A DNA stretch of 59,183 nt, counting the filler. It is 8 parts of 8 records of this genome, joined end to end, with 100 filler letters (N's around TTAATTAATTAA, not from the genome) between each part and the next. Parts side by side here need not be neighbours in the genome. Positions count along the whole stretch, not along the records: positions 9,256 to 19,691 come from SRR31147125_63922; 7 more parts are not named here. One strand, written 5' to 3'. Positions 5,322-53,224 of the stretch are shown here, in pieces. The notes below the pieces were generated by a model. The model was not told where the DNA came from and did no database searches. It worked only from the letters and a program-made list of their open reading frames with translations. Position 1 is the stretch's first letter; each line of letters opens with the position of its first letter. A program made the translations under genes and the position numbers.

Positions 5322-6278
5322 TTATTCTTCCCCATCGCCTCTGTCAAGAGAATATCCGCTACCGCTCCCCCGTTTATACGGTTCTCCAAGCTGCGCAGGC
5401 GCATTTAGACGTCGAGGGTCTTTGAAGCTCATGGCAAGCAGGATCAAGAGGGTTGCCCCGTAGGGAAGCATGGCAAGAAAATTCGGGGAGATACCAAGGG
5501 GTTGTAGAAGATATTGAAGAACGAAGATGCCGCCGAACAAAAACGAACCCCAGATGGCCTTCCCCGGATTCCAAAGGGCAAAGATGGTCAAGGCAATCAC
5601 GATCCAGCCTCGACCGGCGGTCATGCCCTCTATCCACGATTTACTGTAAGATGTGGAGAGATGGGCACCGGCCATGGCGGAAAAGCCGCCACCGATCATG
5701 ACACACGCATATCGAACCAAACCGACGTTGACGCCTTGGGTCTCCGTCGCTCTGGGATTCTCTCCGGTCGAGCGTACTTTTATACCGAGACGGGTCCGCT
5801 CCAGGAAAAACCACGCCCCCAATGCCAGGAAAATGGCCATGTAAAAGTATGGCGTCTGCCTAAAGAACACCGGCCCGATAAAGGGGATATCCGACAACCA
5901 GGGGATGGCCACATCGTTCATTTTTTCAGCAAGGGGCTTGCCGACATAGGGTTTACCCAGCATGCCGGAAAGACCAAGCCCGATCATGGTCAGGGCAAGA
6001 CCTGAGACCACTTGATTGGCCTGAAGGGTCACCGATGCAAAGGCGTGAAGAATGGAGATGAGCATTCCGGCGGCAACGGCAGCCAACAGCCCCAACCAGG
6101 GATTGCCGGTTGTGTATGTTACGATGAAAGCCACCACCGCCCCCACAGACATCACCCCCTCGACGCCGAGATTCAAAATACCGGAACGCTCGCAGATCAC
6201 CTCGCCGACCGTTCCCAAAAGCAACGGCGTTCCCGCCACCATGGTCCGCTGTACCACTGAAACGACCACATCATCCAT
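5322..6278 (-). CDS. ABC transporter permease (nucleoside/simple-sugar, BPD_transp_2)
   Basis: ERSGILNLGVEG, RSTGENP, MTAGRGWIVIAL; highly hydrophobic. Confidence 0.9.
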   Translation of the reverse strand: MDDVVVSVVQRTMVAGTPLLLGTVGEVICERSGILNLGVEGVMSVGAVVAFIVTYTTGNPWLGLLAAVAAGMLISILHAFASVTLQANQVVSGLALTMIGLGLSGMLGKPYVGKPLAEKMNDVAIPWLSDIPFIGPVFFRQTPYFYMAIFLALGAWFFLERTRLGIKVRSTGENPRATETQGVNVGLVRYACVMIGGGFSAMAGAHLSTSYSKSWIEGMTAGRGWIVIALTIFALWNPGKAIWGSFLFGGIFVLQYLLQPLGISPNFLAMLPYGATLLILLAMSFKDPRRLNAPAQLGEPYKRGSGSGYSLDRGDGEE

Positions 6279-6337
6279 TGATAAAAATCCTCAACTAAAC
6301 AATTAACCCCAATCGACCCAACCGAACCACCGCTCTT

Positions 6338-7420
6338 TTACGCATGACGATGCCAAATCAAACGAACCCGGTGTTTCAGAAAATATTCGCCCATAATCAA
6401 GAAAACCAGCAAAATCCCGTTGACGATCTGTACGGTTGCCGCAGGTAATCCCAATGAGATCTGAATGGCATCCCCGCCCACCAGAATTCCGGCAAAGAAG
6501 AGTGCCGAGATTACGGAAAGAAAGGGATTGAGTTTGGCCAGCCATGCTACGATAATGGCGGTAAATCCATATCCCGAAGAGACCGAAGCCGGATACCCCA
6601 GGTATTGATGAATCCCGGCAACCTCTCCCACGCCGGCAAATCCGGCAAGGCCTCCGCTGATGGCCATGATGATGAGGGATGTCTTGAAAAAGTCGATCCC
6701 GGCATATCGCCCCGCTTCGGGATTCTCTCCGATGACTCGAACTTCATATCCGAACCGGGTTCGATAGACGATGATACCCAATATCACAATGGAGATCAGC
6801 GCCAGTATCAGGGTCACGTAGTGGATTCTCGAACCGGGAATCGTGTTTAAAATCGCCGCTTCCGGTAGATTATCCGTCCCTGGGAATCCGAACCGCATCT
6901 TCCCTTTCCATGGGCCTACGATGAGCATGGTGATGAACTCGGCACAGATGTAGTTGAGCATCAACGTGGAGATGACCTCGTTAATGGAAAACTTGATTTT
7001 CAATATGGCCGGAATCATCCCGCACAGCGCGCCGCCGATAAATCCTGCGGTAAACATGGCCGGAATCAAAAGAAATGAGGGAAGTATCTCTCCATATGCA
7101 AGGCCCACCCAAGTGCCCATGAGTGCCCCCATGAGAAGCTGCCCCTCTGCTCCGATGTTCCAAAATTTTGCCCGGAACGCAATGGTCAATCCGGCGCCGA
7201 TAAGAATCAGGGGAATGGCTTTGGTCACCGTCTCTTTAACCCCGTACATGGAGCCGAATGAGCCCATGAACATCTGAGAAACGGCATACAACGGGCTCAC
7301 TTCACACGCCAAAAATACACCGCTGACGACAATCAAGGCCGCAAACAGGGCGCCCATATTGGTCAAGAGGGAACGAAGCGGGGTGATGGCTTCTCTATCA
7401 CTGACTTTGATCATTAACAT
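6338..7420 (-). CDS. ABC transporter permease (nucleoside/simple-sugar)
   Basis: WNIGAEGQ, NEVISTLMLNY, GYEVRVIGENP, GYGFTAIIVAWLA. Confidence 0.9.
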   Translation of the reverse strand: MLMIKVSDREAITPLRSLLTNMGALFAALIVVSGVFLACEVSPLYAVSQMFMGSFGSMYGVKETVTKAIPLILIGAGLTIAFRAKFWNIGAEGQLLMGALMGTWVGLAYGEILPSFLLIPAMFTAGFIGGALCGMIPAILKIKFSINEVISTLMLNYICAEFITMLIVGPWKGKMRFGFPGTDNLPEAAILNTIPGSRIHYVTLILALISIVILGIIVYRTRFGYEVRVIGENPEAGRYAGIDFFKTSLIIMAISGGLAGFAGVGEVAGIHQYLGYPASVSSGYGFTAIIVAWLAKLNPFLSVISALFFAGILVGGDAIQISLGLPAATVQIVNGILLVFLIMGEYFLKHRVRLIWHRHA

Positions 7421-7453
7421 TACTCAACACCTCTCAATATCCAATCCTCGTGA

Positions 7454-8967
7454 TCAATACCGGACCGATCCGGCCATCATCAAACCGATATCCGCCAGTT
7501 TTTCATCATCCGATGCATCCACGATTCCCATAAACTCCCCTTCAAACATAACGGCGATACGATCACACAATTCAAATATTTCCTCAAGATCTTCGGAAAA
7601 GAGCAGTACTGCCCCCGTCTCTTCTGCGGATGAGAAGCTGTTCCCTCAGATATTCCGTGGCCCCCACATCCAATCCATAGGTAGGATGGGATGCCACCAG
7701 CAAGGATGGTTTTTCACTGATCTCTCTTCCCAGGATCAACTTCTGAATATTACCGCCGGACAGATTCTTGATCTCCACATCGATGGAGTGAGTAGCGACG
7801 TTGTAGTTATCGATCAAAGAGCGGGTATGTTTTTTTATTCTTCCATATTCCAGAAAAACGTTTTTGGAAAACTTTTCCAAATGATGCTGCTTTAAAATCG
7901 CATTGTCATAGAGAAACAGCCCCGGAGCAATCCCGAATTTGATGCGCTCTTCCGGTACATGGGAGACCCCGTGATCGTAAATCTTTCGGGGAGAGAGGTT
8001 GGTGATGTTTTTACTGCCTGCGGTCACGGTTCCGGAATCGATTTTCCGGATTCCCGTAATTGCTTCGGCCAACTCCCGCTGACCGTTTCCGGCAACGCCC
8101 GCAATTCCGAAGATCTCACTGCCGAAAATCTCGAACGAGACATCTTTGACTGCCGAAATCCCCTTATCACCAAGCACATGGAGGTTGGAAACCTTCAGTA
8201 CCCGATCCCCTTTTGGAAGCGTTTCCCGATTGACATTGAACAGCACATCTCGACCGATCATCATACGGGCCAAGGACTTTTTGTCCATGCCTTCGGTCTT
8301 TGTATCCCCCACAATCTCTCCCTTTCGGAGCACCGTCACCCGATCGCAGATCTCCATGATTTCATCGAGTTTATGGGTAATGATGATCACCATGTGGCCT
8401 TGCGCTTTCATATCTTTGAGGATACGAAACAGCTCTTCGATCTCCTGAGGGGTAAGAACGGAGGTCGGCTCGTCCAAAATCAAAAGATCGGCCCCATTGA
8501 GAAGCGCTTTAATGATCTCGACCCGTTGCTGCTCCCCGGCCGAGAGCTGCCACACTTTTCTCCCGGGATCAATGGAAAAATTAAACTTCCTTGAAAATTC
8601 AAGTACTTTCTCACGAAGGCGCACTTTCGGAAAAAAACGGTGTCTCTTCATACCCCAAGGCAATATTTTCGATCACCGAATGGTTCTGGATCAGCATAAA
8701 ATGCTGATGAACCATACCGATCCCTTGATGAATGGATTCCAGGGGAGATGAGATGTTCACCGGCTTACCGTTGATTCGAATTTCTCCACCATCCGGCTGA
8801 TACAGCCCGTAGAGAATGTTCATCAATGTGGTCTTGCCTGCACCATTTTCTCCGAGCAGTCCCAGAATTTCACCGGAACGGACATACAGGTCAATCGCTT
8901 TATTTGCAAAAAATCCTTTAAAGGACTTTGAAATATTGACCATCTCAAGTTTTTCAATTTTTCTCAT
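7454..8967 (-). CDS. ABC transporter ATP-binding protein (double ABC domain), two apparent frameshifts
   Basis: GENGAGKTT, LSAGEQQ, LILDEPT, LSGGNIQK; frames join at the A7 run near 8631-8637 and the C5 run near 7612-7616, continuing AVLLFSEDLEE...MAGSVRY to a stop at 7454. Confidence 0.85.
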
Positions 8968-9155: not shown

Positions 9156-9255
9156 NNNNNNNNNNNNNNNNNNNNNNNNNNNNNNNNNNNNNNNNNNNNT
9201 TAATTAATTAANNNNNNNNNNNNNNNNNNNNNNNNNNNNNNNNNNNNNNNNNNNN
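9156..9255. other. Artificial contig spacer
   Basis: N-run, TTAATTAATTAA (stops in all six frames), N-run; 100 bp. Confidence 0.98.
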
Positions 9256-10227
9256 TTTTCCCTTCGGAGTGGCGTCCGGAGCCTTTCTCTCGACCCGCGG
9301 AAGCGCTGCAGAAGGAGGGGCAGTAGCAAGCGAGTTTTGTCTGCCATGACTGAATGGTGCAATGAATTTATGGAGTTCTGAAGGATTGAAGGAGCGGGTG
9401 AGAAGAAAAGATAGGACTGACTCACTGAGCTCAGCCACCTGCTCGTCGCTGCCGTAGAGCAGCTCCAGTGACGGTACCCGGCGGGCCATGGCCGCAACGC
9501 GGGGAGGCTTGCAGCACCGAGAGCCGGTCCGTTGGCCAGGCTCTCCGTCAGTTTGAGGGCCGTCTGGGCAGTGGACAGGCATGACATCGAAGCGGGTGAA
9601 CCGGGTATGAACCGCGCGAATACGAACAGCCCGATGGGCCAGGTTGCGGGGCTCGTCACCATTGTCGGGAACACTGATAAAACGATAATGCGAGGATCTG
9701 GCGACTTCTTCCCTCACCGTTTCGGGAGAGCTGCCGGGATCGTCGGAATGCTCAATTCGCAGTGGACTGCCGAAGTAGGAACTGGTCACACCTTCCGATT
9801 CTACCGAGGTGATCTCGGAGGTAAAAAAGGACCACCCGCAGGCAATCAGGTGTGCGGCCAGTCGGTTACGTGTTTGATGCAGCGGCGCGGCAATAACGAT
9901 GCTTTTACCGTTTTTCCCAACTGCAGCCGAATGAAATATGCACTGGGCATCTGCGGAATAGGTGATCTCGGATGTGATCATGTCGAGCAGGGTGGAGGCC
10001 ACTTCTTCTTCTGTGGTACGAACCTCGAGATCTCTCTGGGATGAGGTTATCAGGTAGGCGGATGTGCTTTCTGCGGAAATTGTAATTTCATCGGATGCAT
10101 TCTGCCCGCAGGTGATGGCGTGCTTTCCGCACAGGGACTGAATAAGAGAGTTCAGTTCGATAGGGTAGTGAATCGAGACGGAGACCCCGCCGAACCTAAT
10201 GGTAATGTTCCCCTGGTGTGTGTCCAT
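9256..10227 (-). CDS. HPr-kinase-like protein with degenerate P-loop, 3'-truncated by contig end
   Basis: IFHSAAVGKNGKSIVIAA...LIACGWSFFTSEI parallels the 11299 kinase (LHGAAV...GSSGAGKST...GYGYLTDE) but lacks GKS/T and DE. Confidence 0.65.
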
Positions 10228-10251
10228 TACTTATAGCTGTTGAGTATTCAT

Positions 10252-10282
10252 AAAAAAAGGCACCGTGATGAATCACGGTGCC
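10252..10282 (-). terminator. Intrinsic terminator after the Tat-exported Ser/Thr-rich gene
   Basis: GGCACCGTGAT/ATCACGGTGCC stem followed by T7 on the minus strand. Confidence 0.85.
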
Positions 10283-10350
10283 CCTACAGGATTTCGAGTA
10301 TGCCTAGTATCGTGTTACAGGTATGCAACTGAATGCACAGCGTATAACCC

Positions 10351-10977
10351 TTAAGGCAGAAATGTTGATGATGTCGGCGGCAAGAAAGTTGAACTCGTCG
10401 GCGGTAGCGTGGGGCCTTCGGTGGTCGGAGTTTCCGTTGAGGAGACTGTTGTTGTAGGGTCGGGTTCCTCACCCTCGGCGGGGATCTTGACCGAGCAATT
10501 ACCGGTGTTAACCGCACCTTCAACCTGGACCACAAGCGCAACAGCGGTGATGCCCGGACCGCCGGCAATGGTGATGGTGGCTCCGTACCTGCCCTCTGAG
10601 TTCGTGGTAGTGGTGACCGTCACCGGGGATCCGGCCCCCGCCGGTGTCGCAGTGATTGTCGTGGTAAGACCGGATACTGAGGGAGTGACGAATCCATCAA
10701 CCCTTACTGATACCGAGCTTGTCGACCTGTCTCCCCCAGCGAGGCTGGACGTACAGGGGTCGTAGATGGTCAGGCCGCTGGTGGCGGCGTGGGCCGGGAT
10801 GAATACCTGCTTGATGATCGGTGTCGACCAATTGTTTGGAACAACGTGGTAGGCCGTGACTGCACCAACAAGGCCGGCGATTGTCTTTACGGCTTTTCTC
10901 CTTGATGAGTTCTGAGGATCTTGCCCCTGGATTTCTTCGCTATTGCAGATCTCTGTTTCTTTCGTCATGTGTCTCAC
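10351..10977 (-). CDS. Putative Tat-exported protein: WxxP...PAHA leader, small beta-rich domain, Ser/Thr/Pro-rich repeat tail (alternative ATG at 10968)
   Basis: SRRKAVK twin-arginine motif, hydrophobic stretch, WSTPIIKQVFIPAHA-ATS; two Cys in the mature part; tail ...TLPPTSSTFLPPTSSTFLP. Confidence 0.8.
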   Translation of the reverse strand: MRHMTKETEICNSEEIQGQDPQNSSRRKAVKTIAGLVGAVTAYHVVPNNWSTPIIKQVFIPAHAATSGLTIYDPCTSSLAGGDRSTSSVSVRVDGFVTPSVSGLTTTITATPAGAGSPVTVTTTTNSEGRYGATITIAGGPGITAVALVVQVEGAVNTGNCSVKIPAEGEEPDPTTTVSSTETPTTEGPTLPPTSSTFLPPTSSTFLP

Positions 10978-11298
10978 CCTGTAGCCTCAAATTGATACTA
11001 TTTTTATGGTATGAAGCGCTCTATGGTTGTCTTTTTTAGTTTCCTCAATACTCCTAGCAAAATGATCGGGTTAATTCAAGAATTTGTTTGTCTGGCTGGA
11101 AAGGAGGGGATAAGAAAACGTGAACATTTCAGAATGGATCGAGGCATGTAGAGGTTACTATTATTGATGAAAAGTGTGTATTTCATGGTAGCCTGAGGCA
11201 GGTGGACAGCAAGCGGGGAGACGATCCCCTGGCATCGCTATTCGTTGGGCCAGCAGAAACAGAAGCACAGAGCGAAAAGAGATTGTGTAAGGGGAGTA

Positions 11299-12144
11299 AT
11301 GAGACGATTCTATAGATTTGGGTTCAGCAGCCAGTCGTTCGAAATTGAGATCAATAATGACCAATCCTACGGTCTTGCCGAGTTTCTTTTCCGGGACCTG
11401 CCATCGGTTGCCGGGAGGAAAGCCCCGGAAAGGTATGCAATCATCGCGGCCGGTGCGCCAGCGAAATGGTCGCTGTGGCGCGAACAGCAACTGCTCTATT
11501 TCGGTGAGTCGAAACACGAGCTGGCGTGCATGTTGATGAGCGAGGTTGTGTATAGGTCGGTGGAAGGAACAGACACGCAGATAGCGCTGCATGGGGCCGC
11601 GGTGTATCGCGGTGACTCGTGCGTTATCCTGCCTGGAAGTAGCGGGGCCGGGAAAAGCACTCTGGCTTCTTGGCTTATTTCACACGGCTATGGGTATCTC
11701 ACCGACGAATTGGTCCTGCTCTCCCCGGAGGGGACTGTGACTCCCTTTACCCGTCCCATAAGTCTCAATGTGCTGCCAGGCCATCTCGCCTGGGGACTTG
11801 AGCCCGGTCTTGAAGAGCATGTGGTACTGGGGGACGGGGAAAACCCCGGTGCTCTGGTACCGCACCGCCTGCTCAATGGTGGCTTCAGACCTGTCAGGCC
11901 GATCGTCACCCACTTGGTTTTCCCTGAATTCTCATCCGGTGTCCAGCCGCGGTGCAAAGAGTTGACTTCGGCCGAGAGCCTGCTGTTCCTGTTGCAATCC
12001 CATGTCAATGTGAGGATTCTGCCGGATCACGGCATGCCCTCTCTCTCGGCACTGGTCAAAAGATGTCGCTCCTACCATCTTGTTTATGGGAGTTTTGATG
12101 GCATGGATCAAATCTTCAAATCCCTGCTTGCAACCAGCCCATGA
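11299..12144 (+). CDS. HPr kinase-related serine/threonine kinase (lasso-peptide kinase-like)
   Basis: LHGAAV, Walker A GSSGAGKST, YLTDE, PFTRPI; RBS AAGGGGAG before ATG 11299. Confidence 0.8.
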   Translation: MRRFYRFGFSSQSFEIEINNDQSYGLAEFLFRDLPSVAGRKAPERYAIIAAGAPAKWSLWREQQLLYFGESKHELACMLMSEVVYRSVEGTDTQIALHGAAVYRGDSCVILPGSSGAGKSTLASWLISHGYGYLTDELVLLSPEGTVTPFTRPISLNVLPGHLAWGLEPGLEEHVVLGDGENPGALVPHRLLNGGFRPVRPIVTHLVFPEFSSGVQPRCKELTSAESLLFLLQSHVNVRILPDHGMPSLSALVKRCRSYHLVYGSFDGMDQIFKSLLATSP

Positions 12145-13286
12145 ATCGTATCCCCCTGCTTGATATGTGTGCGCGGATAGAAGGGCACGACGTGCAGCAT
12201 CGTCTTCTCCGCCAACAATGTGGCGAGGTGTCAGACTGGAAACACCTCATTGCCAGGGCTGAGTTGGAAGGGATGGGCCCGCTCGTCAAAAAACACTTGG
12301 AAGAATCCGGGTGCCCGGTCCCCGTCCATGCCCGTCGCAGCTTGACCATGCTCCTGCGGCGTCACCAGCGCGAGGCGGAGGTTCGCTCCGATGTGCTCAG
12401 GGAAATACTGAAAACCCTTGGTGAACACGACCTGACCCCGATCCTCATCAAAGGGGCGGCGCTCGCGGTTACCACCTATCCTTGCCCATCACTGCGACCG
12501 ATGCGTGACATCGACCTGCTGCTACGCCACTCCGACGTCGACGCTGCCCAGCAGCTCATGCGGGAGATGGGTTTTGTCCAGCCCAATGCACCGATTCCAC
12601 CCGGTCACTACCACCTGCCTTCACTCAGCAGGAACGTTGAAGGTGTACCGATCTGTATAGAACTGCACCGTGGCATTTATCCGGACTGTCCACCGTGGTA
12701 TCCGGGGATCGATTTTGACCGGCTTCTCGCGTCTGCCAAACACATCGAACTGGAGGATAGGGAGGTGGCGACCCTGGGAGATCTGGATACCCTCGACTAC
12801 CTCTATCAGCACGGTTTCAGAGCTCCGCTCACGTACGAGACTTACCGTCTGATCAACGCTGCAGACCTGATCGGTTTCGTTGAAAAAAACTGTCACGAAC
12901 TGGATTTCGGCCAGATCCGCACCCGGTATCCTTCCCTCTATCGGGCATTGCCGTTCATGCACTATCTTACCCCGTGGGATGAATCCATCGTTGAAGATTC
13001 ATTTGCGATCCCGCCTTCTGGCCCAACCATGCTCCCGCTACCTTTCAGCGGTTGGCCACAGCGCAGGCTCAAACGATTCCAGGCTGATGGGCAGAAAATA
13101 CACCATATCCTCGCATCCACCTTTCTTCCGCCACGATGGTGGCTGTCTATCTATTACGGAGCAACCTCTCCTCTCCAGCGCCTCGGATGCCTCTGCTGGG
13201 CACATCCCCGCCATGTGCTGTGGTGGGCGAGATTGCTTTTCTCGGTGGCTCGGGAAAAAGAGCGGAGAAGCGATGGGGTAGGGTGA
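12141..13286 (+). CDS. Nucleotidyltransferase family protein (NTP_transf_5-like)
   Basis: LIKGAALA...YP...RPMRDIDLL, IELH; 4-bp overlap with the kinase. Confidence 0.85.
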   Translation: MNRIPLLDMCARIEGHDVQHRLLRQQCGEVSDWKHLIARAELEGMGPLVKKHLEESGCPVPVHARRSLTMLLRRHQREAEVRSDVLREILKTLGEHDLTPILIKGAALAVTTYPCPSLRPMRDIDLLLRHSDVDAAQQLMREMGFVQPNAPIPPGHYHLPSLSRNVEGVPICIELHRGIYPDCPPWYPGIDFDRLLASAKHIELEDREVATLGDLDTLDYLYQHGFRAPLTYETYRLINAADLIGFVEKNCHELDFGQIRTRYPSLYRALPFMHYLTPWDESIVEDSFAIPPSGPTMLPLPFSGWPQRRLKRFQADGQKIHHILASTFLPPRWWLSIYYGATSPLQRLGCLCWAHPRHVLWWARLLFSVAREKERRSDGVG

Positions 13287-13308
13287 GGCGGTTGACGATC
13301 GGGAAAGG

Positions 13309-13887
13309 TTAAAAATACCTCTCCAACAGGTCGTAGTCGGTCGAGTAGAGGGCTTGTATCCGCTCTCTATCCTGGCCGGTCAATTCGATATAGATGGTGT
13401 CGGACTTGTTGATCTGAGGTAGTCTCACTTGCGGATAGCCACAACTCCTCAGCATGGTGTTAAGGTTTTGTTCCAGGTTGGTAGTTCCCAGGATGAGGTG
13501 TACTTTTTGAATTCTGTGGTCAAACAGCCAGGTATGCTGAGCATGCCAGCTGAGGTGTCTGAGCTTACGATGTTCCTGAGGCTTTTCCAGGTCATCGAGG
13601 ATTTCAGGGATTGTCATATCCTGTAATGCTTCTCGGTCCTGGTGAGGGTGATGCTTGAAGTCATGCCAATAGGTTCTTTCAGATTTCGCAAATTTTACAG
13701 ACGACAGGAAGCGATCGATGGGGTCCCTGACTACTGCAAAAGAGATATAGCCATCCGGTACATCCCTCCACGTTACATGCTGACTGCTGCTAATCTGGAG
13801 GTTGAGTGCAATACACAGTGAGGTACCTGCCGTTTTGGGGACATGTACCAGAAAGAGCTTTTGGTTTTTATTCAGTGAAATGGGCAT
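13309..13887 (-). CDS. Sulfotransferase family 2 protein
   Basis: PAPS motifs VHVPKTAGTS and VRDPIDRFLS. Confidence 0.85.
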   Translation of the reverse strand: MPISLNKNQKLFLVHVPKTAGTSLCIALNLQISSSQHVTWRDVPDGYISFAVVRDPIDRFLSSVKFAKSERTYWHDFKHHPHQDREALQDMTIPEILDDLEKPQEHRKLRHLSWHAQHTWLFDHRIQKVHLILGTTNLEQNLNTMLRSCGYPQVRLPQINKSDTIYIELTGQDRERIQALYSTDYDLLERYF

Positions 13888-14015
13888 TTGTGCACTCAGC
13901 TGATTCTATCTGCAATAAAACCGCTGTTCGAAGGTATAAGTATCTCAAGGAATGAGAAAGATGAGGTTCCCATAATAATGTACTGGATTGTGAAAGAGAC
14001 CGAACTGATGTCTCT

Positions 14016-14714
14016 TCATGCGAAATCATAATTGAATATGCTGATATCTCTATGGTAGATGGCTGCAACTTCGTCTATCAACCTGTCAGTGTAGTAGTCC
14101 TGGTAGTTATCTTTTTTCTTCGACGGATTTCTGTGAAATTCAATGAAGTCGATACCGATGGTTTGGGTAACGTGCAGTAGGTCTTCGTCAAAATTCTCGA
14201 ATCTTCCGATGAAATCAACTTCATTGAGATCTATCAGCTTCGACTGAAGTCTCAGGTGGTGGTCGCAGTGCCGTATATCCTTCTGTTTCAAGAACTCGAC
14301 GAAGTTATCGAATGACTGCATCTGGAGTAACTCATCATCGGTAAACTTGAAGTAATTGTTGTTGACCACTTTGTTGTGCCAGCAGGATACAAGTCTGTCC
14401 CATGGATTCCTGACGAATGAAAACTTGAAGTAGCTATCGTAGGATTGTGGGGAGTAGTGGCAGAACATTGGATGCGCTGCATCGAGAAACAGGTTGTTTT
14501 TTTTCAATATACTGAGAATGCTTCGTGATCCCACCTTGGCTACCCGATACCACAGAAACTTCTTTTCTTCGCACGTCGTAATGTTGTAACTATACCGGGT
14601 GGGGAGATGGGGGAAATGGTTCTGCAGGGTTTGTGAAAAACGCTGGTATAAACGGTTTGCTCCATTCAACCTCATCGGAGAGCCTTGTTCAGTTCTGAGT
14701 AAAACCATCGTCAA
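14016..14714 (-). CDS. Sulfotransferase family 2 protein (start uncertain)
   Basis: WYRVAKVGSRS, FVRNPWDRLVS, FIGRFENF, IYHRDISIFNY. Confidence 0.85.
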   Translation of the reverse strand: MTMVLLRTEQGSPMRLNGANRLYQRFSQTLQNHFPHLPTRYSYNITTCEEKKFLWYRVAKVGSRSILSILKKNNLFLDAAHPMFCHYSPQSYDSYFKFSFVRNPWDRLVSCWHNKVVNNNYFKFTDDELLQMQSFDNFVEFLKQKDIRHCDHHLRLQSKLIDLNEVDFIGRFENFDEDLLHVTQTIGIDFIEFHRNPSKKKDNYQDYYTDRLIDEVAAIYHRDISIFNYDFA

Positions 14715-14954
14715 TCACTGTGGATACATCATTGATGCGTAAAAGGCAGCGGGATCATTCATCTGCGATACTGGCAAATTGTCACAGGTTGCCGCATAAT
14801 GCAAGGCGGTAATTTCTCCTGGCTAGAAACGAAACCTGGCAATTATACTGAGGGCAAAACAAAATATATATGCTTGCGGCACAATTTCCACACGCGTCTT
14901 TATTTTGATCCAAAACCAGATTTGTTCATGGTTTCTGTAGGGTTTCCTTTATCG

Positions 14955-15704
14955 CTATTCAAATGTATAATTAAAATTCGCTATGTCAGAACTGTAGTAT
15001 TGAGCAACAAAGTCTCTACACTCCAGATCGTAATAGTTCTGGTATGTATTGTAACGGGGAATTGATCTGTAGCGACGATTCTTTTTAATGGAGGTAGCGA
15101 ATTTTATCGGATTAAGGCTGAATTTCGGAGCTTTTTTAAGGGGACTGGAATTTATATGAGGTATTTGAACAGGCGATAGTCCAATCCTCTTGCATACAAA
15201 GTCAAAGCTGTCCTGCAGTTGCTCGAACCGGCCGACATAATCGACCAGCAACTCTCCATTGTCATTGAACAGAAATTCTGTTTGTGGACAGATGAACCAA
15301 TACTTTTCAGTAGTGAGGTTGTTCTTAAATTCGCGAAAAAGAAATGTTTTGAAATCATATTCTGAGTCATACCCCAGATATTTGTAAAAGGACACCACAC
15401 GGCTCCATGGATTCCTGACAAAACTGAATTTAAAATAGCTCTCAAACATGTCCTGAGGCATATATTTATAACGAACATACTCCGTTGCTTTCAGATGAGC
15501 GAGTCGTGGAGGGCCGAGTTCAGGTCGATTATTATATCTGAGAAGGAGTGGGGCGCGATTCTCCCAACTCAGGTCAAGGAGCTTGAGGAATACATGTTCA
15601 ATGCTCATGCCCGCATTTTTGGGAATATGAATGAACACGCACTTATAGTGATGACAAAGCATGTGTTTTTTCCTGAATGTGATGCAAGTGGTTCCGATTC
15701 GCAA
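14955..15704 (-). CDS. Sulfotransferase family 2 protein (likely start ATG near 15662)
   Basis: FIHIPKNAGMS, FVRNPWSRVVS, YVGRFEQL, YSSDIANFNY. Confidence 0.88.
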   Translation of the reverse strand: MRIGTTCITFRKKHMLCHHYKCVFIHIPKNAGMSIEHVFLKLLDLSWENRAPLLLRYNNRPELGPPRLAHLKATEYVRYKYMPQDMFESYFKFSFVRNPWSRVVSFYKYLGYDSEYDFKTFLFREFKNNLTTEKYWFICPQTEFLFNDNGELLVDYVGRFEQLQDSFDFVCKRIGLSPVQIPHINSSPLKKAPKFSLNPIKFATSIKKNRRYRSIPRYNTYQNYYDLECRDFVAQYYSSDIANFNYTFE

Positions 15705-15721
15705 TCAAGGTAGCCTTAAGA

Positions 15722-16624
15722 CTATTTTGATTGCAATGTGGAACAACTCACCGATTTAAGTATTTCATCTAGGACAATATTGGTATCGTATTTGTTAAAA
15801 TAGTCCATGGTTCCTCGGGGACCGTTTTTAAAGAAAGTCGCTGCGGAGGGACGGTGCATCTTTATGTTCTGGTAATAGTCACGCGACATGGTTCGATAGT
15901 GGTTGATTGCCAGGCTCATGGTTGGGATATGAGACTCCCTAAAATAGAGACAATAGGGTAGTGGCTCCCCCAGGAGTTTGAGGTTGTCGGGTTCGCAGGA
16001 CGGGCGTAATTTTCTTCCATTCTTTAACCGATGATTGTGGATGCCCAACACGAAATGCTTCCATGATTTCTGGTTATCCGTCGGCCGTTCTGCAAGCGCT
16101 TTTGTCCTGACGATGGTCTTGAAGCTTGTCCAGCCTTTCTTGTCATAGTCATCACGATAAACAAATGAATGGACGATACTCTTTGGTTGTTCGACCAAAC
16201 CACTCGAACCAAAAGACAGCCAGGGTACAGCCAGGGCATCTATATCCTCGTATCGTTCAAGCACGGCCTTGATATCGTCGCTGCCATCTCGCGGATAAAG
16301 GTATTCGTCAATGTCGATGATCGCGACCCACCGACTCTCGTGCCGAAGGGTCTCGAGATACCATTTGTCATAGGCAAACCATTGACGGAAATTACCAGGT
16401 TCGTCCATTACATCCACTAGTCCGCAGGCTCTATACGGTGCCAAGATTTCCTGGTAATTATCGCTGCTTTCGTTGTTGATCAGGTAAAAATGTTGGCATC
16501 CAAAGCGAAGATGATGGTCGATCCACTCTTTGAGCGTTGGCGCTTCATTTCTGAAGATTGCGCAGACACTCAGTTCATATTGTGGGGTATGGGGAGATTT
16601 TCGAGTCATGGTATAACATTTCAC
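15722..16624 (-). CDS. GT-A glycosyltransferase (GT92/GT2-like)
   Basis: VCAIFRNEAPTLKEWIDHH, FYLINNESSD, DxD motif DIDEYL, INHY. Confidence 0.82.
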   Translation of the reverse strand: MKCYTMTRKSPHTPQYELSVCAIFRNEAPTLKEWIDHHLRFGCQHFYLINNESSDNYQEILAPYRACGLVDVMDEPGNFRQWFAYDKWYLETLRHESRWVAIIDIDEYLYPRDGSDDIKAVLERYEDIDALAVPWLSFGSSGLVEQPKSIVHSFVYRDDYDKKGWTSFKTIVRTKALAERPTDNQKSWKHFVLGIHNHRLKNGRKLRPSCEPDNLKLLGEPLPYCLYFRESHIPTMSLAINHYRTMSRDYYQNIKMHRPSAATFFKNGPRGTMDYFNKYDTNIVLDEILKSVSCSTLQSK

Positions 16625-16893
16625 GTGTTTGTCGGTTTCATCGGTGCTGCCAAATCCAGGATTATAAATTTATCACGATGCCATCTGATTCCAACTCGCA
16701 ATCAAGAAGACTTTAAAATCAAATCTCATCCAGTTAGATCCTTTTTCGGTAACCTCTTATAGCAGTACAGAGAGCGATCACTCTTGTGTGTCACCTGATC
16801 CACAACGCTATACACAAAAACCTTGGATTTCTTAACCATTTTTCAATGGTTGGCCCTTGTGGAAAAATCCTGCAGCGCATACATCCGATCATC

Positions 16894-18345
16894 TCACAGA
16901 ATCGGTGACGTCAAATTGGCAAACCTGACAAGCACCCAGAACCAGAGCGGTTTCTCATCGAGCTCTCGCTCGTCCATGAGCCTGGAGTTGGCAAAATCTT
17001 CTTCAAACATTTGCTCAACCTGCTGATTGAAGTCCCGGTCGTTTACTAATGCGGTGATCTCAAAGTTCAGTCGGAATGATCTGTTGTCGAAATTTGCCGT
17101 TCCGATTCCGGCAACGGTGTCATCTACGAGAACCGCTTTCTGGTGCATGAAGCCTTTGGTGTAGCGGTAAAACTGAACACCGCTTCCGGCCACCTGTCTG
17201 AAGTAGGAGTAAGCCGCAAGGTAAACGATGAGATGATCCGGGTCATCAGGGATCAGTATGCGCACATCGACACCTCGCATGCGTGCGAGGTGCAGCGACG
17301 TCATAATGCTTTCATCGGGGACAAAATAGGGGCTTGCTATCCAGACCCTGCTCCTGGCGGAGTTGATGGCATGGGCGAACATCAACCCGGCGGTATCATT
17401 AGTATCCGCCGGGCCGCTCGGGACGATCAGTACTTCACGGGAACCTCGCGGCTCCAGTGATTTCTGCCAGTTGAGCTCGAGAATCGAGTCCGTTGCCCAG
17501 TTCCAGTCTTCCAGAAACGACAGCTGTAAGGGGAGGCATGCCGGTCCTTCTATTTTGAGGTGTGTGTCACGCCAGAACCCGAATTCCGGATCTTTTCCCA
17601 TGTATTCATCACCAACGTTATGTCCGCCGAGCCAGCCTGTTTTGCCGTCGACGATGACAACTTTCCGGTGATTTCTGAAGTTAATCTGGAAACGATTTCT
17701 GGGACCCTTTCGGGAGTGGAAGCTCGAGACATGAATACCCTCGGTTGTCATGTCCTCGATGTAGGACGACGGTAATTTGTAGCTCCCGATTTCATCGTAG
17801 AGAAAAAAGACGTCAACACCCTGTTTTGATTTGGAGATCAGGCGGGATTTCAATTCTCTGCCAAGCTCGTCATCTTTGATGATATAAAACTGGACGAGGA
17901 TATAGTCCCGGGCCTGCTCAATTCCGTCGAATAGAGATGCGAAGGTGGCTTCTCCATTGAGGAGTAACTCCGTCGCGTTACCGGTCAGCATGGGAACCTT
18001 GGCGAGTCGTTCGGCAGCCATTGCTATCTGGCTGGCGTTGCTTGCCGGGGAGATAAAACGCCTCTTCTCCTCCGTTAGCTGTCGTGCAAGAGATGCAAGA
18101 TCCGAGTCTTCGATCTGCCTTGACAGTATGTACCCCTCGAACTTGCTTCGTCCCAGCACCCAGTATGCAGGCAGGGCAACGAGAGGAAATGTGTTGAGCG
18201 ACACGACCCACGCGATTGCGCCCTGCGAGGTTCTTGTCTTCATAACCGCGTCGATTGACGAGATAAAACCAACGGCATGAAGAATCAGGAAAATGAGGGA
18301 TAGGTAGGTGCTTTTTTTAATGAAAGCCTTTGTTTTGGTCAGCAT
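16894..18345 (-). CDS. cls: Cardiolipin synthase
   Basis: Two HKD motifs (NHRKVVIVD, MHQKAVLVD), N-terminal TM helices, SPYFVPD. Confidence 0.93.
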   Translation of the reverse strand: MLTKTKAFIKKSTYLSLIFLILHAVGFISSIDAVMKTRTSQGAIAWVVSLNTFPLVALPAYWVLGRSKFEGYILSRQIEDSDLASLARQLTEEKRRFISPASNASQIAMAAERLAKVPMLTGNATELLLNGEATFASLFDGIEQARDYILVQFYIIKDDELGRELKSRLISKSKQGVDVFFLYDEIGSYKLPSSYIEDMTTEGIHVSSFHSRKGPRNRFQINFRNHRKVVIVDGKTGWLGGHNVGDEYMGKDPEFGFWRDTHLKIEGPACLPLQLSFLEDWNWATDSILELNWQKSLEPRGSREVLIVPSGPADTNDTAGLMFAHAINSARSRVWIASPYFVPDESIMTSLHLARMRGVDVRILIPDDPDHLIVYLAAYSYFRQVAGSGVQFYRYTKGFMHQKAVLVDDTVAGIGTANFDNRSFRLNFEITALVNDRDFNQQVEQMFEEDFANSRLMDERELDEKPLWFWVLVRFANLTSPIL

Positions 18346-18360
18346 GTCGTTTCGGTAACG

Positions 18361-19456
18361 CTACCTGGGGTTGTCTGGAGTCAGGAACCAGTATGGAAGC
18401 GTGTCTTTGAATAATTGGTTAAGTTGTGATCGTTGAGATGCCGGTCTGCCCGTATGCAGTAGCTCGGTGAGATCCCCAATCACCTCGGGGTTAAAAAGAT
18501 GGTAGAGGTGACCGGACAACCGCCTGTTGCTGATGCCTGACAGGTCGACCGTCTCAACTCCTTCGAATATCGTCAGGTTCGTTCCGGCCTGACCGAGCCG
18601 TGGATAGCCATGCACTTCCTCGGATAACCTCAGTGCCCTGTCATTTTCTGAGACATAGACGGTGATGCGCCCAACGATACTGCTGAGTTTCTCGAGATCC
18701 TGGTGGAACACGCCGGTATCAATATCAGGTGCGATCAGTATCAGCTCATCGACCAGCTTGTCCGAACCATATTTATAGGAGAGACGTACGAGTGACTGGA
18801 CAACTCCCCGTGCACCGAGACTATGAGCCACCACATCTATTCCACCATTCCCGGTCAATGAAACGACTTCTTCAAGAAATGCGGCCATATGCGGGACACT
18901 CCACACCAGATCGGATTCGTCCCACGTGTACTTCAGCATATTGCCGTCTGCGGGCCAGCTGAACAGCAGCAGCTTGTCCTGAAGACCAAGCGCCCTCTGA
19001 AAAGAGCTGTGCGCCGGCAGCTTTTTTCAAAATCGATGTTATATCCGTGCACGTAGAAGACCAGGTTGCCATCGTTTTGAGTGGTCTGAGATTGAATACC
19101 GTCTGAGAGGTCAGATAGGGGAACCTCCTGTATGCTCGTCAATTCAATTTTTTCATCAGGAATATAGAAGGGGACCGATTCGGCAATATCTCCGACCCCC
19201 CAGATTGGAGAGAAACGCACTGAACACACCCCTGCACGTAATTCGCCACGGTTCCCTCCAAAATAGTCTGAAGGGGCTGGCTGTCCTGTTTTGTTTCTGA
19301 GTGTTACATAGGGGACTGAGATCAAAGGAGCCTGCAGGTCTCCCCTTCCGTTCTTCTCTGATCAAACTGTGATTTCTGTGTACTTTCTGCCGATGGAACC
19401 CAGCAGCCAGCCAGGAGGATTGTTCCAAAGATGATACACAGCAGTTTTTTGTGCAT
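18361..19456 (-). CDS. DUF900-type alpha/beta hydrolase lipoprotein, two apparent frameshifts
   Basis: MHKKLLCIIFGTILLAGC lipobox at 19456; YVHGYN; FSWPADG after a shift at the A4 run near 19000; nucleophile AHSLG; APDID; second shift near 19345. Confidence 0.75.
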
Positions 19457-19691
19457 GATTGCTCTTTGTGTGAGTTCGAGAATCGATGGTATGAAGCGTC
19501 AATTTCCTGCACTCCGTAATCTACTCACCCAGAGTAATCTAAAATTGCAATGGATGCGAACAGGGGAAGATAAGAGAGAGTCAGAGAAAAAAACCGGTTC
19601 GCGTGAGGGAGAATTCAGATGTGTATATTCGTCATATTATAGTATACTATGCGATTCGTCTTAACTAGTTTCGATCCGAAAACGATCATTT

Positions 19692-19791
19692 NNNNNNNNN
19701 NNNNNNNNNNNNNNNNNNNNNNNNNNNNNNNNNNNTTAATTAATTAANNNNNNNNNNNNNNNNNNNNNNNNNNNNNNNNNNNNNNNNNNNN
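19692..19791. other. Artificial contig spacer
   Basis: N-TTAATTAATTAA-N, 100 bp. Confidence 0.98.
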
Positions 19792-25589: not shown

Positions 25590-25689
25590 NNNNNNNNNNN
25601 NNNNNNNNNNNNNNNNNNNNNNNNNNNNNNNNNTTAATTAATTAANNNNNNNNNNNNNNNNNNNNNNNNNNNNNNNNNNNNNNNNNNNN
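25590..25689. other. Artificial contig spacer
   Basis: N-TTAATTAATTAA-N, 100 bp. Confidence 0.98.
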
Positions 25690-31891: not shown

Positions 31892-31991
31892 NNNNNNNNN
31901 NNNNNNNNNNNNNNNNNNNNNNNNNNNNNNNNNNNTTAATTAATTAANNNNNNNNNNNNNNNNNNNNNNNNNNNNNNNNNNNNNNNNNNNN
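31892..31991. other. Artificial contig spacer
   Basis: N-TTAATTAATTAA-N, 100 bp. Confidence 0.98.
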
Positions 31992-40880: not shown

Positions 40881-40980
40881 NNNNNNNNNNNNNNNNNNNN
40901 NNNNNNNNNNNNNNNNNNNNNNNNTTAATTAATTAANNNNNNNNNNNNNNNNNNNNNNNNNNNNNNNNNNNNNNNNNNNN
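40881..40980. other. Artificial contig spacer
   Basis: N-TTAATTAATTAA-N, 100 bp. Confidence 0.98.
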
Positions 40981-47807: not shown

Positions 47808-47907
47808 NNNNNNNNNNNNNNNNNNNNNNNNNNNNNNNNNNNNNNNNNNNNTTAATTAATTAANNNNNNNNNNNNNNNNNNNNNNNNNNNNNNNNNNNNN
47901 NNNNNNN
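47808..47907. other. Artificial contig spacer
   Basis: N-TTAATTAATTAA-N, 100 bp. Confidence 0.98.
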
Positions 47908-53124: not shown

Positions 53125-53224
53125 NNNNNNNNNNNNNNNNNNNNNNNNNNNNNNNNNNNNNNNNNNNNTTAATTAATTAANNNNNNNNNNNNNNNNNNNN
53201 NNNNNNNNNNNNNNNNNNNNNNNN
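53125..53224. other. Artificial contig spacer
   Basis: N-TTAATTAATTAA-N, 100 bp. Confidence 0.98.

Follow-up and report, generated by a model that had tools for sequence, protein, structure and literature searches.

A leader-defined family of exported proteins linked to an HprK-like kinase and nucleotidyltransferase cassette, a probable Gram-negative relative of the linear polyphosphorylated peptide pathway

The window analyzed here is a stretch of 59,183 bases in which eight contigs are joined by N44-TTAATTAATTAA-N44 spacers, and the locus under study is its second contig (9256-19691, 10.4 kb), where the gene for a 208-amino-acid (aa) leader protein lies beside genes for an HprK-like Ser kinase and an NTP_transf_5 nucleotidyltransferase. 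Across the genomes surveyed, this kind of leader protein and the HprK-like kinase / NTP_transf_5 pair are linked far beyond chance. The reading that we favor as the probable one is that the locus represents, in a Gram-negative (Desulfobulbales-type) lineage, a relative of the linear polyphosphorylated peptide (LPP) pathway of Bacillota (Popov et al., Nat Commun 2026, PMC13381572) that acts on whole exported proteins. The primary target is likely the invariant Ser at position +3 behind the leader, and not the C-terminal tail, since the leader layout matches that of the LPP precursor with its phosphorylated Ser3. The original prediction for this DNA had proposed that machinery of the kind known from peptides that are made by ribosomes and modified after translation (RiPPs) modifies an exported protein on its tail. 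The first part of this proposal is supported by the co-occurrence and adjacency described below; the second is not, as the tail is variable and the conserved candidate is Ser +3, in the register of LPP Ser3. The genes that it listed are all present as described on the contig, and the core of the locus comprises the following features (positions are those of the window).

10351..10977, minus strand: precursor gene, for the 208-aa RR-leader protein (leader, immunoglobulin (Ig)-like beta-sandwich and Thr/Ser/Pro-rich tail)
10786..10968, minus strand: leader, with the invariant columns in 58 sequences; disordered in the AlphaFold2 model
10897-10902, minus strand: RR of the leader, with a Gly/Ala-rich hydrophobic stretch next to it
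10819-10830, minus strand: WxxP of the leader
10786-10794, minus strand: AHA of the leader, predicted signal-peptidase site
10777..10779, minus strand: Ser codon at +3 after AHA, candidate phosphorylation site; invariant in the family, register of LppA Ser3
10477..10773, minus strand: Ig-like beta-sandwich with a conserved Cys pair; block means of the predicted local distance difference test (pLDDT) 90-98
10354..10476, minus strand: Thr/Ser/Pro-rich disordered tail, by composition and low pLDDT
10256..10285, minus strand: strong intrinsic terminator 3' of the precursor gene; 13-bp stem (7 GC), 4-nt loop, T-run
11245..12144, plus strand: HprK-like Ser kinase (LppK-like); TIGR04352 E 2.7e-25, 89 bits
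12141..13286, plus strand: NTP_transf_5 nucleotidyltransferase (LppN/PsmN-like); PF14907 E 3.2e-35, DID motif
9256..10227, minus strand: HprK-like open reading frame (ORF), N-terminal part of a kinase-like/GT2 fusion gene (hereafter KGT); TIGR04352 E 6e-5, cut by the contig end

The protein family is defined by its leader. The 208-aa protein had 57 relatives at E<=0.01, and in the 58-sequence alignment all invariant columns (R26, R27, A29, P47, W50, P53, P61, H63 and S67) were located within the N-terminal 67 residues, the mature parts beyond being unrelated among members. In the leader pattern, S-R-R-K-A-V-K precedes a hydrophobic stretch rich in Gly and Ala; L-P-x-x-W-x-x-P comes next, then nine residues of which the last are P-A-H-A, and, after another two residues, a Ser that Gly usually follows; the Ser at +3 was present in 58/58 aligned sequences. 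A leader-only profile (27 sequences, 49 columns), searched against 1.84 billion representatives, matched 4117 protein clusters at E<=0.001, with 1025 of them also passing E<=1e-10. Among the best 150 matches of this profile, 136 were not already in the family set; in all 136 of these further representatives the leader was N-terminal and the spacing from W..P to H was nine residues; 135 had Ser at +3, the remaining one had Thr, and Gly came next in 116. The further leader proteins obtained by this profile search were 67-404 aa long, and a word-based search for shorter or longer leader-bearing proteins gave none at E<=0.01. A rare variant with Thr at +3 (A-H-A-I-T-T) was observed in Desulfofustis glycolicus (L040:5263-6105). 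Read-through of an in-frame TGA in leader-gene matches was rejected in the one case checked, where the codon was the ordinary stop of a short-tail form.

The longest ORF of the precursor gene begins with GTG at 10977; the likely start is the ATG at 10968, with GGGTGAG ahead of it. No Pfam or NCBIfam family was matched by the 208-aa protein. In the AlphaFold2 model, a disordered leader and a disordered tail flank a confident beta-sandwich (residues 71-170, pLDDT 90-98 as 10-residue block means); a fold search of the PDB with the mature domain gave generic beta-sandwich matches only (best E, 6.8e-4), so that the fold provides no functional lead. The terminator which the original prediction had assigned to this gene was recovered as a 13-bp stem with a T-run at 10285-10256.

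As for the export signal, the RR pair is invariant in 58/58 sequences, in the form S-R-R-x-hydrophobic-hydrophobic-K followed by the Gly/Ala-rich stretch and A-H-A, from which export by the twin-arginine translocation (Tat) route and cleavage after AHA are predicted. TatC was found in 5/5 relatives' genomes (G001-G005), each of which had three TatC genes; one TatC gene appears as two match pieces. Tat signal peptides can have dedicated leader-binding chaperones of the TorD/DmsD type. The present leader resembles such signals in the RR motif, the long n-region, the weakly hydrophobic Gly/Ala-rich stretch and a predicted cytoplasmic binder, but differs from them in the approximately 20 invariant residues between the hydrophobic stretch and AHA, and in having a RiPP recognition protein of the PqqD type as the predicted binder.

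Co-occurrence was evaluated in 201 genomes of the order, of which 18 had the leader family and 49 had PF14907. PF14907 was present in 18/18 leader-positive and 31/183 leader-negative genomes (one-sided Fisher test, p = 5.7e-13), and the kinase at E<=1e-15, found in 25 genomes, in 16/18 and 9/183, respectively (Fisher test, p = 1.5e-15); note that these statistics ignore shared ancestry. At least one leader gene had a PF14907 gene within 10 kb in 13 of the 18 leader-positive genomes, and so did 17 of the 41 leader genes in all (counted after split matches had been merged by hand). The co-occurrence of leader and enzymes that the original prediction had proposed to look for is thus borne out. 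The nine leader-negative genomes with a kinase match had a different subtype of HprK-related kinase, which is longer (open frames of 351-432 aa) and higher-scoring (74-135 bits).

The arrangement of the genes was examined in 23 leader-gene loci, 22 of which are of Desulfobulbales type (Desulforhopalus, Desulfofustis, Desulfotalea, Desulfobulbaceae and 'delta proteobacterium' metagenome-assembled genomes (MAGs)) and one of which is labelled Gammaproteobacteria. Genes of the cassette (PqqD, HprK-like kinase and nucleotidyltransferase) were found, within the DNA retrieved for each locus, in six of them (L016, L017, L019, L023, L027 and L028), with a weak fragment in L015. At L017, L027 and L023, a PqqD gene heads the cassette and the leader gene stands next to it in divergent orientation. 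The cassette runs PqqD-HprK-nucleotidyltransferase in L027 and PqqD-nucleotidyltransferase in L023; in L017 it reads PqqD-HprK as far as the end of the contig. The L027 module is self-contained because it is flanked by housekeeping genes (dehydroquinase and prismane). Leader genes were also located less than 10 kb from cassette genes in L004, L016, L019 and L028, adjoining PqqD-HprK in L038, and directly 3' of the nucleotidyltransferase gene in L040. With the kinase as query, loci L001-L004 were found. In L001 and L002, PqqD is directly ahead of the kinase, and the order in L004 is PqqD, kinase, a PqqD-like fusion, sulfotransferase and nucleotidyltransferase, then the KGT gene and the leader gene. 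In an Acidobacteriota MAG (L003:5964-12351), the gene for a protein with an RR...W..P...HA..S leader has as neighbors a gene with a JmjC domain, a pair of Sulfotransfer_3 genes, and genes for an HprK-like kinase, PqqD and NTP_transf_5; thus, the leader type extends beyond Desulfobulbales. The five relatives' genomes gave 4, 1, 11, 9 and 8 leader matches (some of which are pieces of one gene), and PF14907, HprK-like and PqqD genes were present in 5/5. A single leader gene and a single PqqD-HprK-nucleotidyltransferase set, the latter split over two contigs, were found in Desulforhopalus vacuolatus, and the two adjoin each other.

The kinase of the window (11245-12144; likely start ATG 11299, with AGGGGAG ahead) retains GSSGAGKS (Walker A) and LTDEL, and has 44% identity to the kinase of L001, whose gene comes after a PqqD gene; no match to it was found among solved structures. 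Through an overlap of ATGA, its gene is translationally coupled to that of the NTP_transf_5 enzyme, which likewise retains its catalytic motif, in agreement with the intact, coupled pair of the original prediction. The truncated paralogue at 9256-10227, described there as a degenerate kinase, has indeed lost the Walker A and TDE motifs, but it is the N-terminal domain of a kinase-like/GT2 fusion: it is colinear with the N-terminal domain and linker of fusions of 600-770 aa (L004:10208-12022, L016:5451-7760 and L039:4329-6068), and the contig end falls where the GT2 domain of these fusions begins. Among KGT proteins, that of L004 has an intact P-loop and that of L039 retains part of it, whereas those of L016 and the window have lost it. 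The KGT gene is directly downstream of the leader gene in the window, L004, L016 and L039/L042 (in L042, with one 144-codon ORF between).

Neither PqqD nor Asn_synthase nor Transglut_core3 was detected on the contig 9256-19691, and none of them in the 41 ORFs of the other seven contigs (E<=1e-5). PqqD is directly beside the kinase in L001, L002, L004, L017, L019, L027, L033-L036 and L038, and the PqqD gene of the present locus is probably beyond the contig break at 9256; it may be just past the break, since in L042 the PqqD gene comes after the KGT gene. A 327-aa protein encoded between the kinase and the sulfotransferase of L004 (L004:7134-8117) has a PqqD-like N-terminal part (tblastn, E 1e-6), with no family match outside that part; it is a putative second, fused recognition domain within the same operon. 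Neither lasso cyclase nor B2 peptidase was found in related loci, up to 10 kb on each side, so that their absence, noted for the contig in the original prediction, holds for complete related loci too. Two of the five relatives' genomes had no Transglut_core3 match, and the sole strong match, in Desulfofustis glycolicus (G001 C67), is on another contig, beside its own PqqD and far from leader loci.

The core of the LPP pathway consists of the precursor LppA, the HprK-like kinase LppK, the discrete recognition protein LppB, the SipW-like peptidase LppS, the MsbA-like exporter LppD and the nucleoside triphosphate (NTP) transferase LppN (PMC13381572). Its precursors are 35-200 aa long, with a conserved N-terminus, a variable C-terminus and the motif YxxPxVLxHQxIxFETxxS; the leader is cleaved after T-1, and Ser3 of the core gains one to four phosphates, which the S3A substitution abolishes (PMC13381572). 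The LPP recognition protein tolerates W in the docking motif, for which paeninodin recognition proteins have a preference, the clusters of both LPP and paeninodins are located inside capsular polysaccharide loci, and both are restricted to Bacillota according to the authors; the final product and role of LPP are given as not yet established (PMC13381572). The present system agrees with LPP in the discrete PqqD-type recognition protein (seen in the relatives), the HprK-like kinase, the NTP transferase, the lack of a cyclase, the glycan-gene surroundings, the conserved N-terminus with a variable C-terminus, and the order of a [Y/W]xxP docking motif, a hydrophobic stretch, a cleavage site of small residues and Ser +3. 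It differs in having W for Y, 17 residues from W to Ser (18 from Y to Ser in LPP), and an AxA site, which fits ordinary signal peptidase I, for F-E-T. An RR/hydrophobic, Tat-like segment lies upstream here; the terms 'twin-arginine' and 'signal peptide' occur nowhere in PMC13381572. Furthermore, the hosts are of Desulfobulbales type plus one Acidobacteriota MAG instead of Bacillota, the substrates are folded full-size proteins, many per genome and scattered, and KGT, GT92 and sulfotransferases are added. Since two defining LPP genes (see below) were not found, and lineage, leader architecture and substrate class differ, we regard the locus as a relative of LPP and not as a member. The word 'undescribed' in the original prediction therefore needs restriction: a pathway of RiPP recognition element, HprK kinase and NTP transferase was published in 2026 (PMC13381572).

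A comparison with the tailoring enzymes of lasso peptides is also informative (PMC8498205). In precursors of the paeninodin type, the C-terminal Ser is the residue phosphorylated by HprK-type kinases (PadeK), the nucleotidyltransferase of pseudomycoidin (PsmN, with the kinase PsmK) adds hexose to the phosphate, and sulfotransferase genes are present in some paeninodin/pseudomycoidin-type clusters (PMC8498205). The HprK-type Ser kinase with a nucleotidyltransferase, the sulfotransferases of some clusters and a WxxP in the leader are common to both; in the present locus, however, cyclase, B2 peptidase and short precursor are lacking, the conserved Ser is N-terminal, and the protein ends in Pro. 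We found no paper describing a system of leader protein and cassette; the supplement of PMC13381572 (precursor lists and domain co-occurrence) was outside this search and may hold non-Bacillota or signal-bearing examples. In titles and abstract openings, no relevant paper joining twin-arginine with RiPP recognition element or HPr kinase was found.

From the gene content, leader conservation, co-occurrence and adjacency observed, we infer the following chemical steps, export route and cleavage. The leader would be a composite of a Tat-like RR signal, a WxxP docking motif for a PqqD-type protein, the A-H-A site and the invariant Ser +3. In the cytoplasm, the PqqD-type recognition protein would bind the WxxP segment and present the Ser to the HprK-like kinase, which may phosphorylate it, possibly several times, and the coupled NTP_transf_5 enzyme would extend the phosphate with a sugar or a nucleotide-derived group. 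In the subclass to which the window belongs, KGT, GT92 and the three sulfotransferases may add glycan and sulfate to that group and/or to the Thr/Ser-rich tail. The folded, modified protein would then exit via Tat, and a housekeeping signal peptidase would cut after AHA. One enzyme set probably serves many substrates, because the same leader heads many unrelated exported proteins per genome. A further reading, which we put forward tentatively and consider less probable than its converse, is that the leader plus x-x-Ser-Gly is a general sorting tag, and that one PqqD/kinase/nucleotidyltransferase set adds an N-terminal phosphate-linked glycan to dozens of Tat-exported proteins, tethering them to the envelope or to a sulfated matrix polysaccharide. 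If so, it would be an N-terminal, RiPP-derived counterpart of sortase/exosortase, with RiPP recognition acting on whole proteomes of folded proteins.

Several observations weigh against reading the locus as an LPP relative that acts on exported proteins. Two core LPP genes were not found, namely the SipW-like peptidase (neither the contig nor the related loci that were scanned gave a peptidase family match) and the MsbA-like ATP-binding cassette (ABC) exporter (on the contig or in L001, L004, L017, L019, L023, L027 and L028), and deletion of LppN was reported to be without effect in the heterologous host (PMC13381572). The placement of PqqD beyond the break follows from synteny only, and between 10977 and 11245 there is neither a small ORF nor a PqqD relic, nor room for one. 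The PqqD profile of this lineage stands at a similar distance from the lasso B1 protein TbiB1 (E 1.4e-5) and from 9x8z_B (E 7.6e-5) and 9x90_B (E 1e-4), PDB chains deposited as PqqD-family proteins. Sixteen of the 23 leader loci are without cassette genes, and 24 of the 41 leader genes have no PF14907 within 10 kb; since most leader genes are thus not beside the enzymes, action in trans must be assumed. Conversely, the cassettes of L033 and L034 (one MAG) have no adjoining leader gene, and a regular-expression scan with reading of small ORFs found no leader gene beside the orphan cassettes L033-L037. The original description of the protein as a Tat substrate is favored by the RR-x-A-V-K motif, the hydrophobic stretch and the AxA site, but Tat profiles match the family weakly: TIGR01409 matches 10/58 sequences at E<=10 (best, 0.057) and the Pfam TAT_signal at most 1/58. 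With regard to the NCBIfam HPr-rel-A families (TIGR04352 and TIGR04353), the kinases score higher with TIGR04352 than with any other named family and the trio of PqqD, kinase and nucleotidyltransferase is the same, but the scores are far under the curated cut-offs: the kinases reach about 75-100 bits (89-99 in this comparison) against 200, and the PqqDs of the relatives at most 21 bits against 35. None of the 201 genomes had a match over the cut-off, and no paper naming HPr-rel-A, TIGR04352 or TIGR04353 was found.

The remaining genes of the locus are accessory and are located beyond the nucleotidyltransferase gene.

13309..13887, minus strand: accessory sulfotransferase 1; Sulfotransfer_2 PF03567 E 9.7e-13, PKTAGTS and RDPIDR, GC 0.475
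14016..14714, minus strand: accessory sulfotransferase 2; PF03567 E 3.7e-21, RNPWDR, GC 0.433
14955..15704, minus strand: accessory sulfotransferase 3; PF03567 E 4.5e-14, PKNAGMS and RNPWSR, GC 0.405
15722..16624, minus strand: accessory GT-A glycosyltransferase; Glyco_tranf_2_4 / GT92, E 4.9e-18 and 1.1e-17

The GC content of this sulfotransferase/GT92 block is 0.41-0.48, against 0.55-0.57 for the precursor, kinase, nucleotidyltransferase and KGT genes; because of this much lower GC, the block (13309-16624) may be a separately acquired glycan islet, which also speaks against including it in the proposed pathway. The GT92 of the window has a 51%-identical homologue in one of the five relatives' genomes (Desulfofustis glycolicus), between two leader genes and by a KGT gene. 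A sulfotransferase gene lies within the L004 operon, and D. singaporensis has one at a distance of approximately 200 bp from a leader gene; those beside the L003 leader gene belong to a different family (Sulfotransfer_3), and two further Sulfotransfer_2 genes in relatives are away from leader genes. The tail of the 208-aa protein that the original prediction had emphasized does exist (of the final 41 residues, 18 are S/T and 9 are P, the last residue being Pro; no tandem repeat at score >=30 in the DNA encoding it), but it is not a family trait, being present in 5/58 family members and 3/136 further representatives. On the other hand, in 4/4 cases the precursor directly upstream of a KGT gene consists of the leader, an Ig-like domain bearing a Cys pair, and a tail that is short and rich in Thr, Ser and Pro; because of this tail, it is plausible that glycosylation and sulfation of the tail form a second layer specific to this subclass, the link being weaker than that of the core.

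Four other explanations were considered. In that of the original prediction, the enzymes decorate the Ser/Thr/Pro tail with phosphate, sugars and sulfate to give a mucin-like anionic glycoprotein, and the leader is an export signal only. The association of the tail with KGT-adjacent precursors (4/4, compared with its rarity in the family), the GT92 homologue between two leader genes, and the sulfotransferase genes (in or beside L004 and L003, and adjoining a leader gene of G003) speak for it. We nevertheless judge it unlikely, as most leader proteins have no tail, the kinase and nucleotidyltransferase track the leader and not the tail, and the invariant Ser +3 and WxxP are left unexplained; moreover, HprK-type peptide kinases act on one defined Ser, namely Ser3 in LPP (PMC13381572) and the C-terminal Ser in paeninodin (PMC8498205), and the present protein ends in Pro. 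Alternatively, the cassette, sulfotransferases and glycosyltransferases might build or tailor a polysaccharide or lipid-linked glycan, with the exported protein as an unrelated neighbor. This would be in keeping with the capsular polysaccharide surroundings of LPP and paeninodin clusters (PMC13381572), the deviating GC of the sulfotransferase/GT92 block, the cardiolipin synthase gene after that block, and the further glycosyltransferases in L001, L016 and L019. It would, however, leave the PqqD-type peptide-recognition protein without a role in glycan synthesis, compact modules such as L027 are without glycan genes, and the cassette co-occurs with and adjoins the leader family, so that this explanation seems improbable to us.

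We hold it to be equally improbable that the leader is a sorting or quality-control signal, for which the PqqD-like protein serves as a Tat-leader chaperone (cf. TorD/DmsD) or the Ser as an anchoring site, the kinase and nucleotidyltransferase acting on something other than that Ser. The invariance of the whole c-region over unrelated cargo, the three TatC genes in each of the five relatives' genomes and the many leader proteins per genome (1 to 11 matches) would suit this idea; against it, linkage to the leader is as tight for the kinase gene as for the PqqD gene, and the register of the Ser equals that of the experimentally phosphorylated Ser3 of LPP (PMC13381572). The least credible explanation, to which we attach hardly any weight, is that an ordinary lasso cluster is present, of which these enzymes form the tailoring half and whose cyclase, peptidase and short precursor are beyond the contig break. 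The contig does end inside a gene at 9256, and an HprK-type kinase, a nucleotidyltransferase and a sulfotransferase are known from paeninodin-/pseudomycoidin-type clusters (PMC8498205). Nevertheless, uninterrupted related loci, up to 10 kb on each side, are without Asn_synthase or Transglut_core3; the Transglut_core3 distribution given above (two of five genomes without a match, and the clear lasso B2 gene of G001 C67 far from leader loci) is likewise unfavorable; and synteny would put the GT2 half of KGT and the PqqD gene beyond the break.

If the locus is indeed an LPP relative acting on exported proteins, leader-guided RiPP machinery known from small peptides would be a general means of post-translational tagging of full-size proteins. 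An export signal and an enzyme-docking motif would share one leader, which bears on the order of cytoplasmic modification before Tat export, and the LPP kinase/nucleotidyltransferase would gain a testable substrate and site (Ser +3) outside Bacillota. Cultured strains with the system are Desulforhopalus vacuolatus, D. singaporensis and Desulfofustis glycolicus.

Beyond the GT92 gene, the same contig carries genes for a cardiolipin synthase and a DUF900 hydrolase. The DUF900 alpha/beta-hydrolase gene (18361-19325, minus strand) is in two overlapping ORFs (18933-19325 and 18361-18939), and because of this split a frameshift or a sequencing error is suspected. The spacers between the contigs of the window are as follows.

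9156-9255, 19692-19791, 25590-25689, 31892-31991, 40881-40980, 47808-47907 and 53125-53224: spacers

The GC content per contig varies from approximately 0.31 to 0.54 (2-kb windows); since it differs strongly among the contigs, more than one organism or island may be mixed in the bin. Contig 1 carries at its right end four genes for ABC transporters of the branched-chain type (5322-8967), and homologues of these genes adjoin leader genes in L017:4946-8963 and L019:2787-6266; because of this neighborhood in two relatives, contig 1 may adjoin the cut left end (9256) of the locus contig. The identity of these homologues is approximately 40-45% for the two permeases and, in partial alignments, 35-46% for the two ATPases (35-37% in L017).

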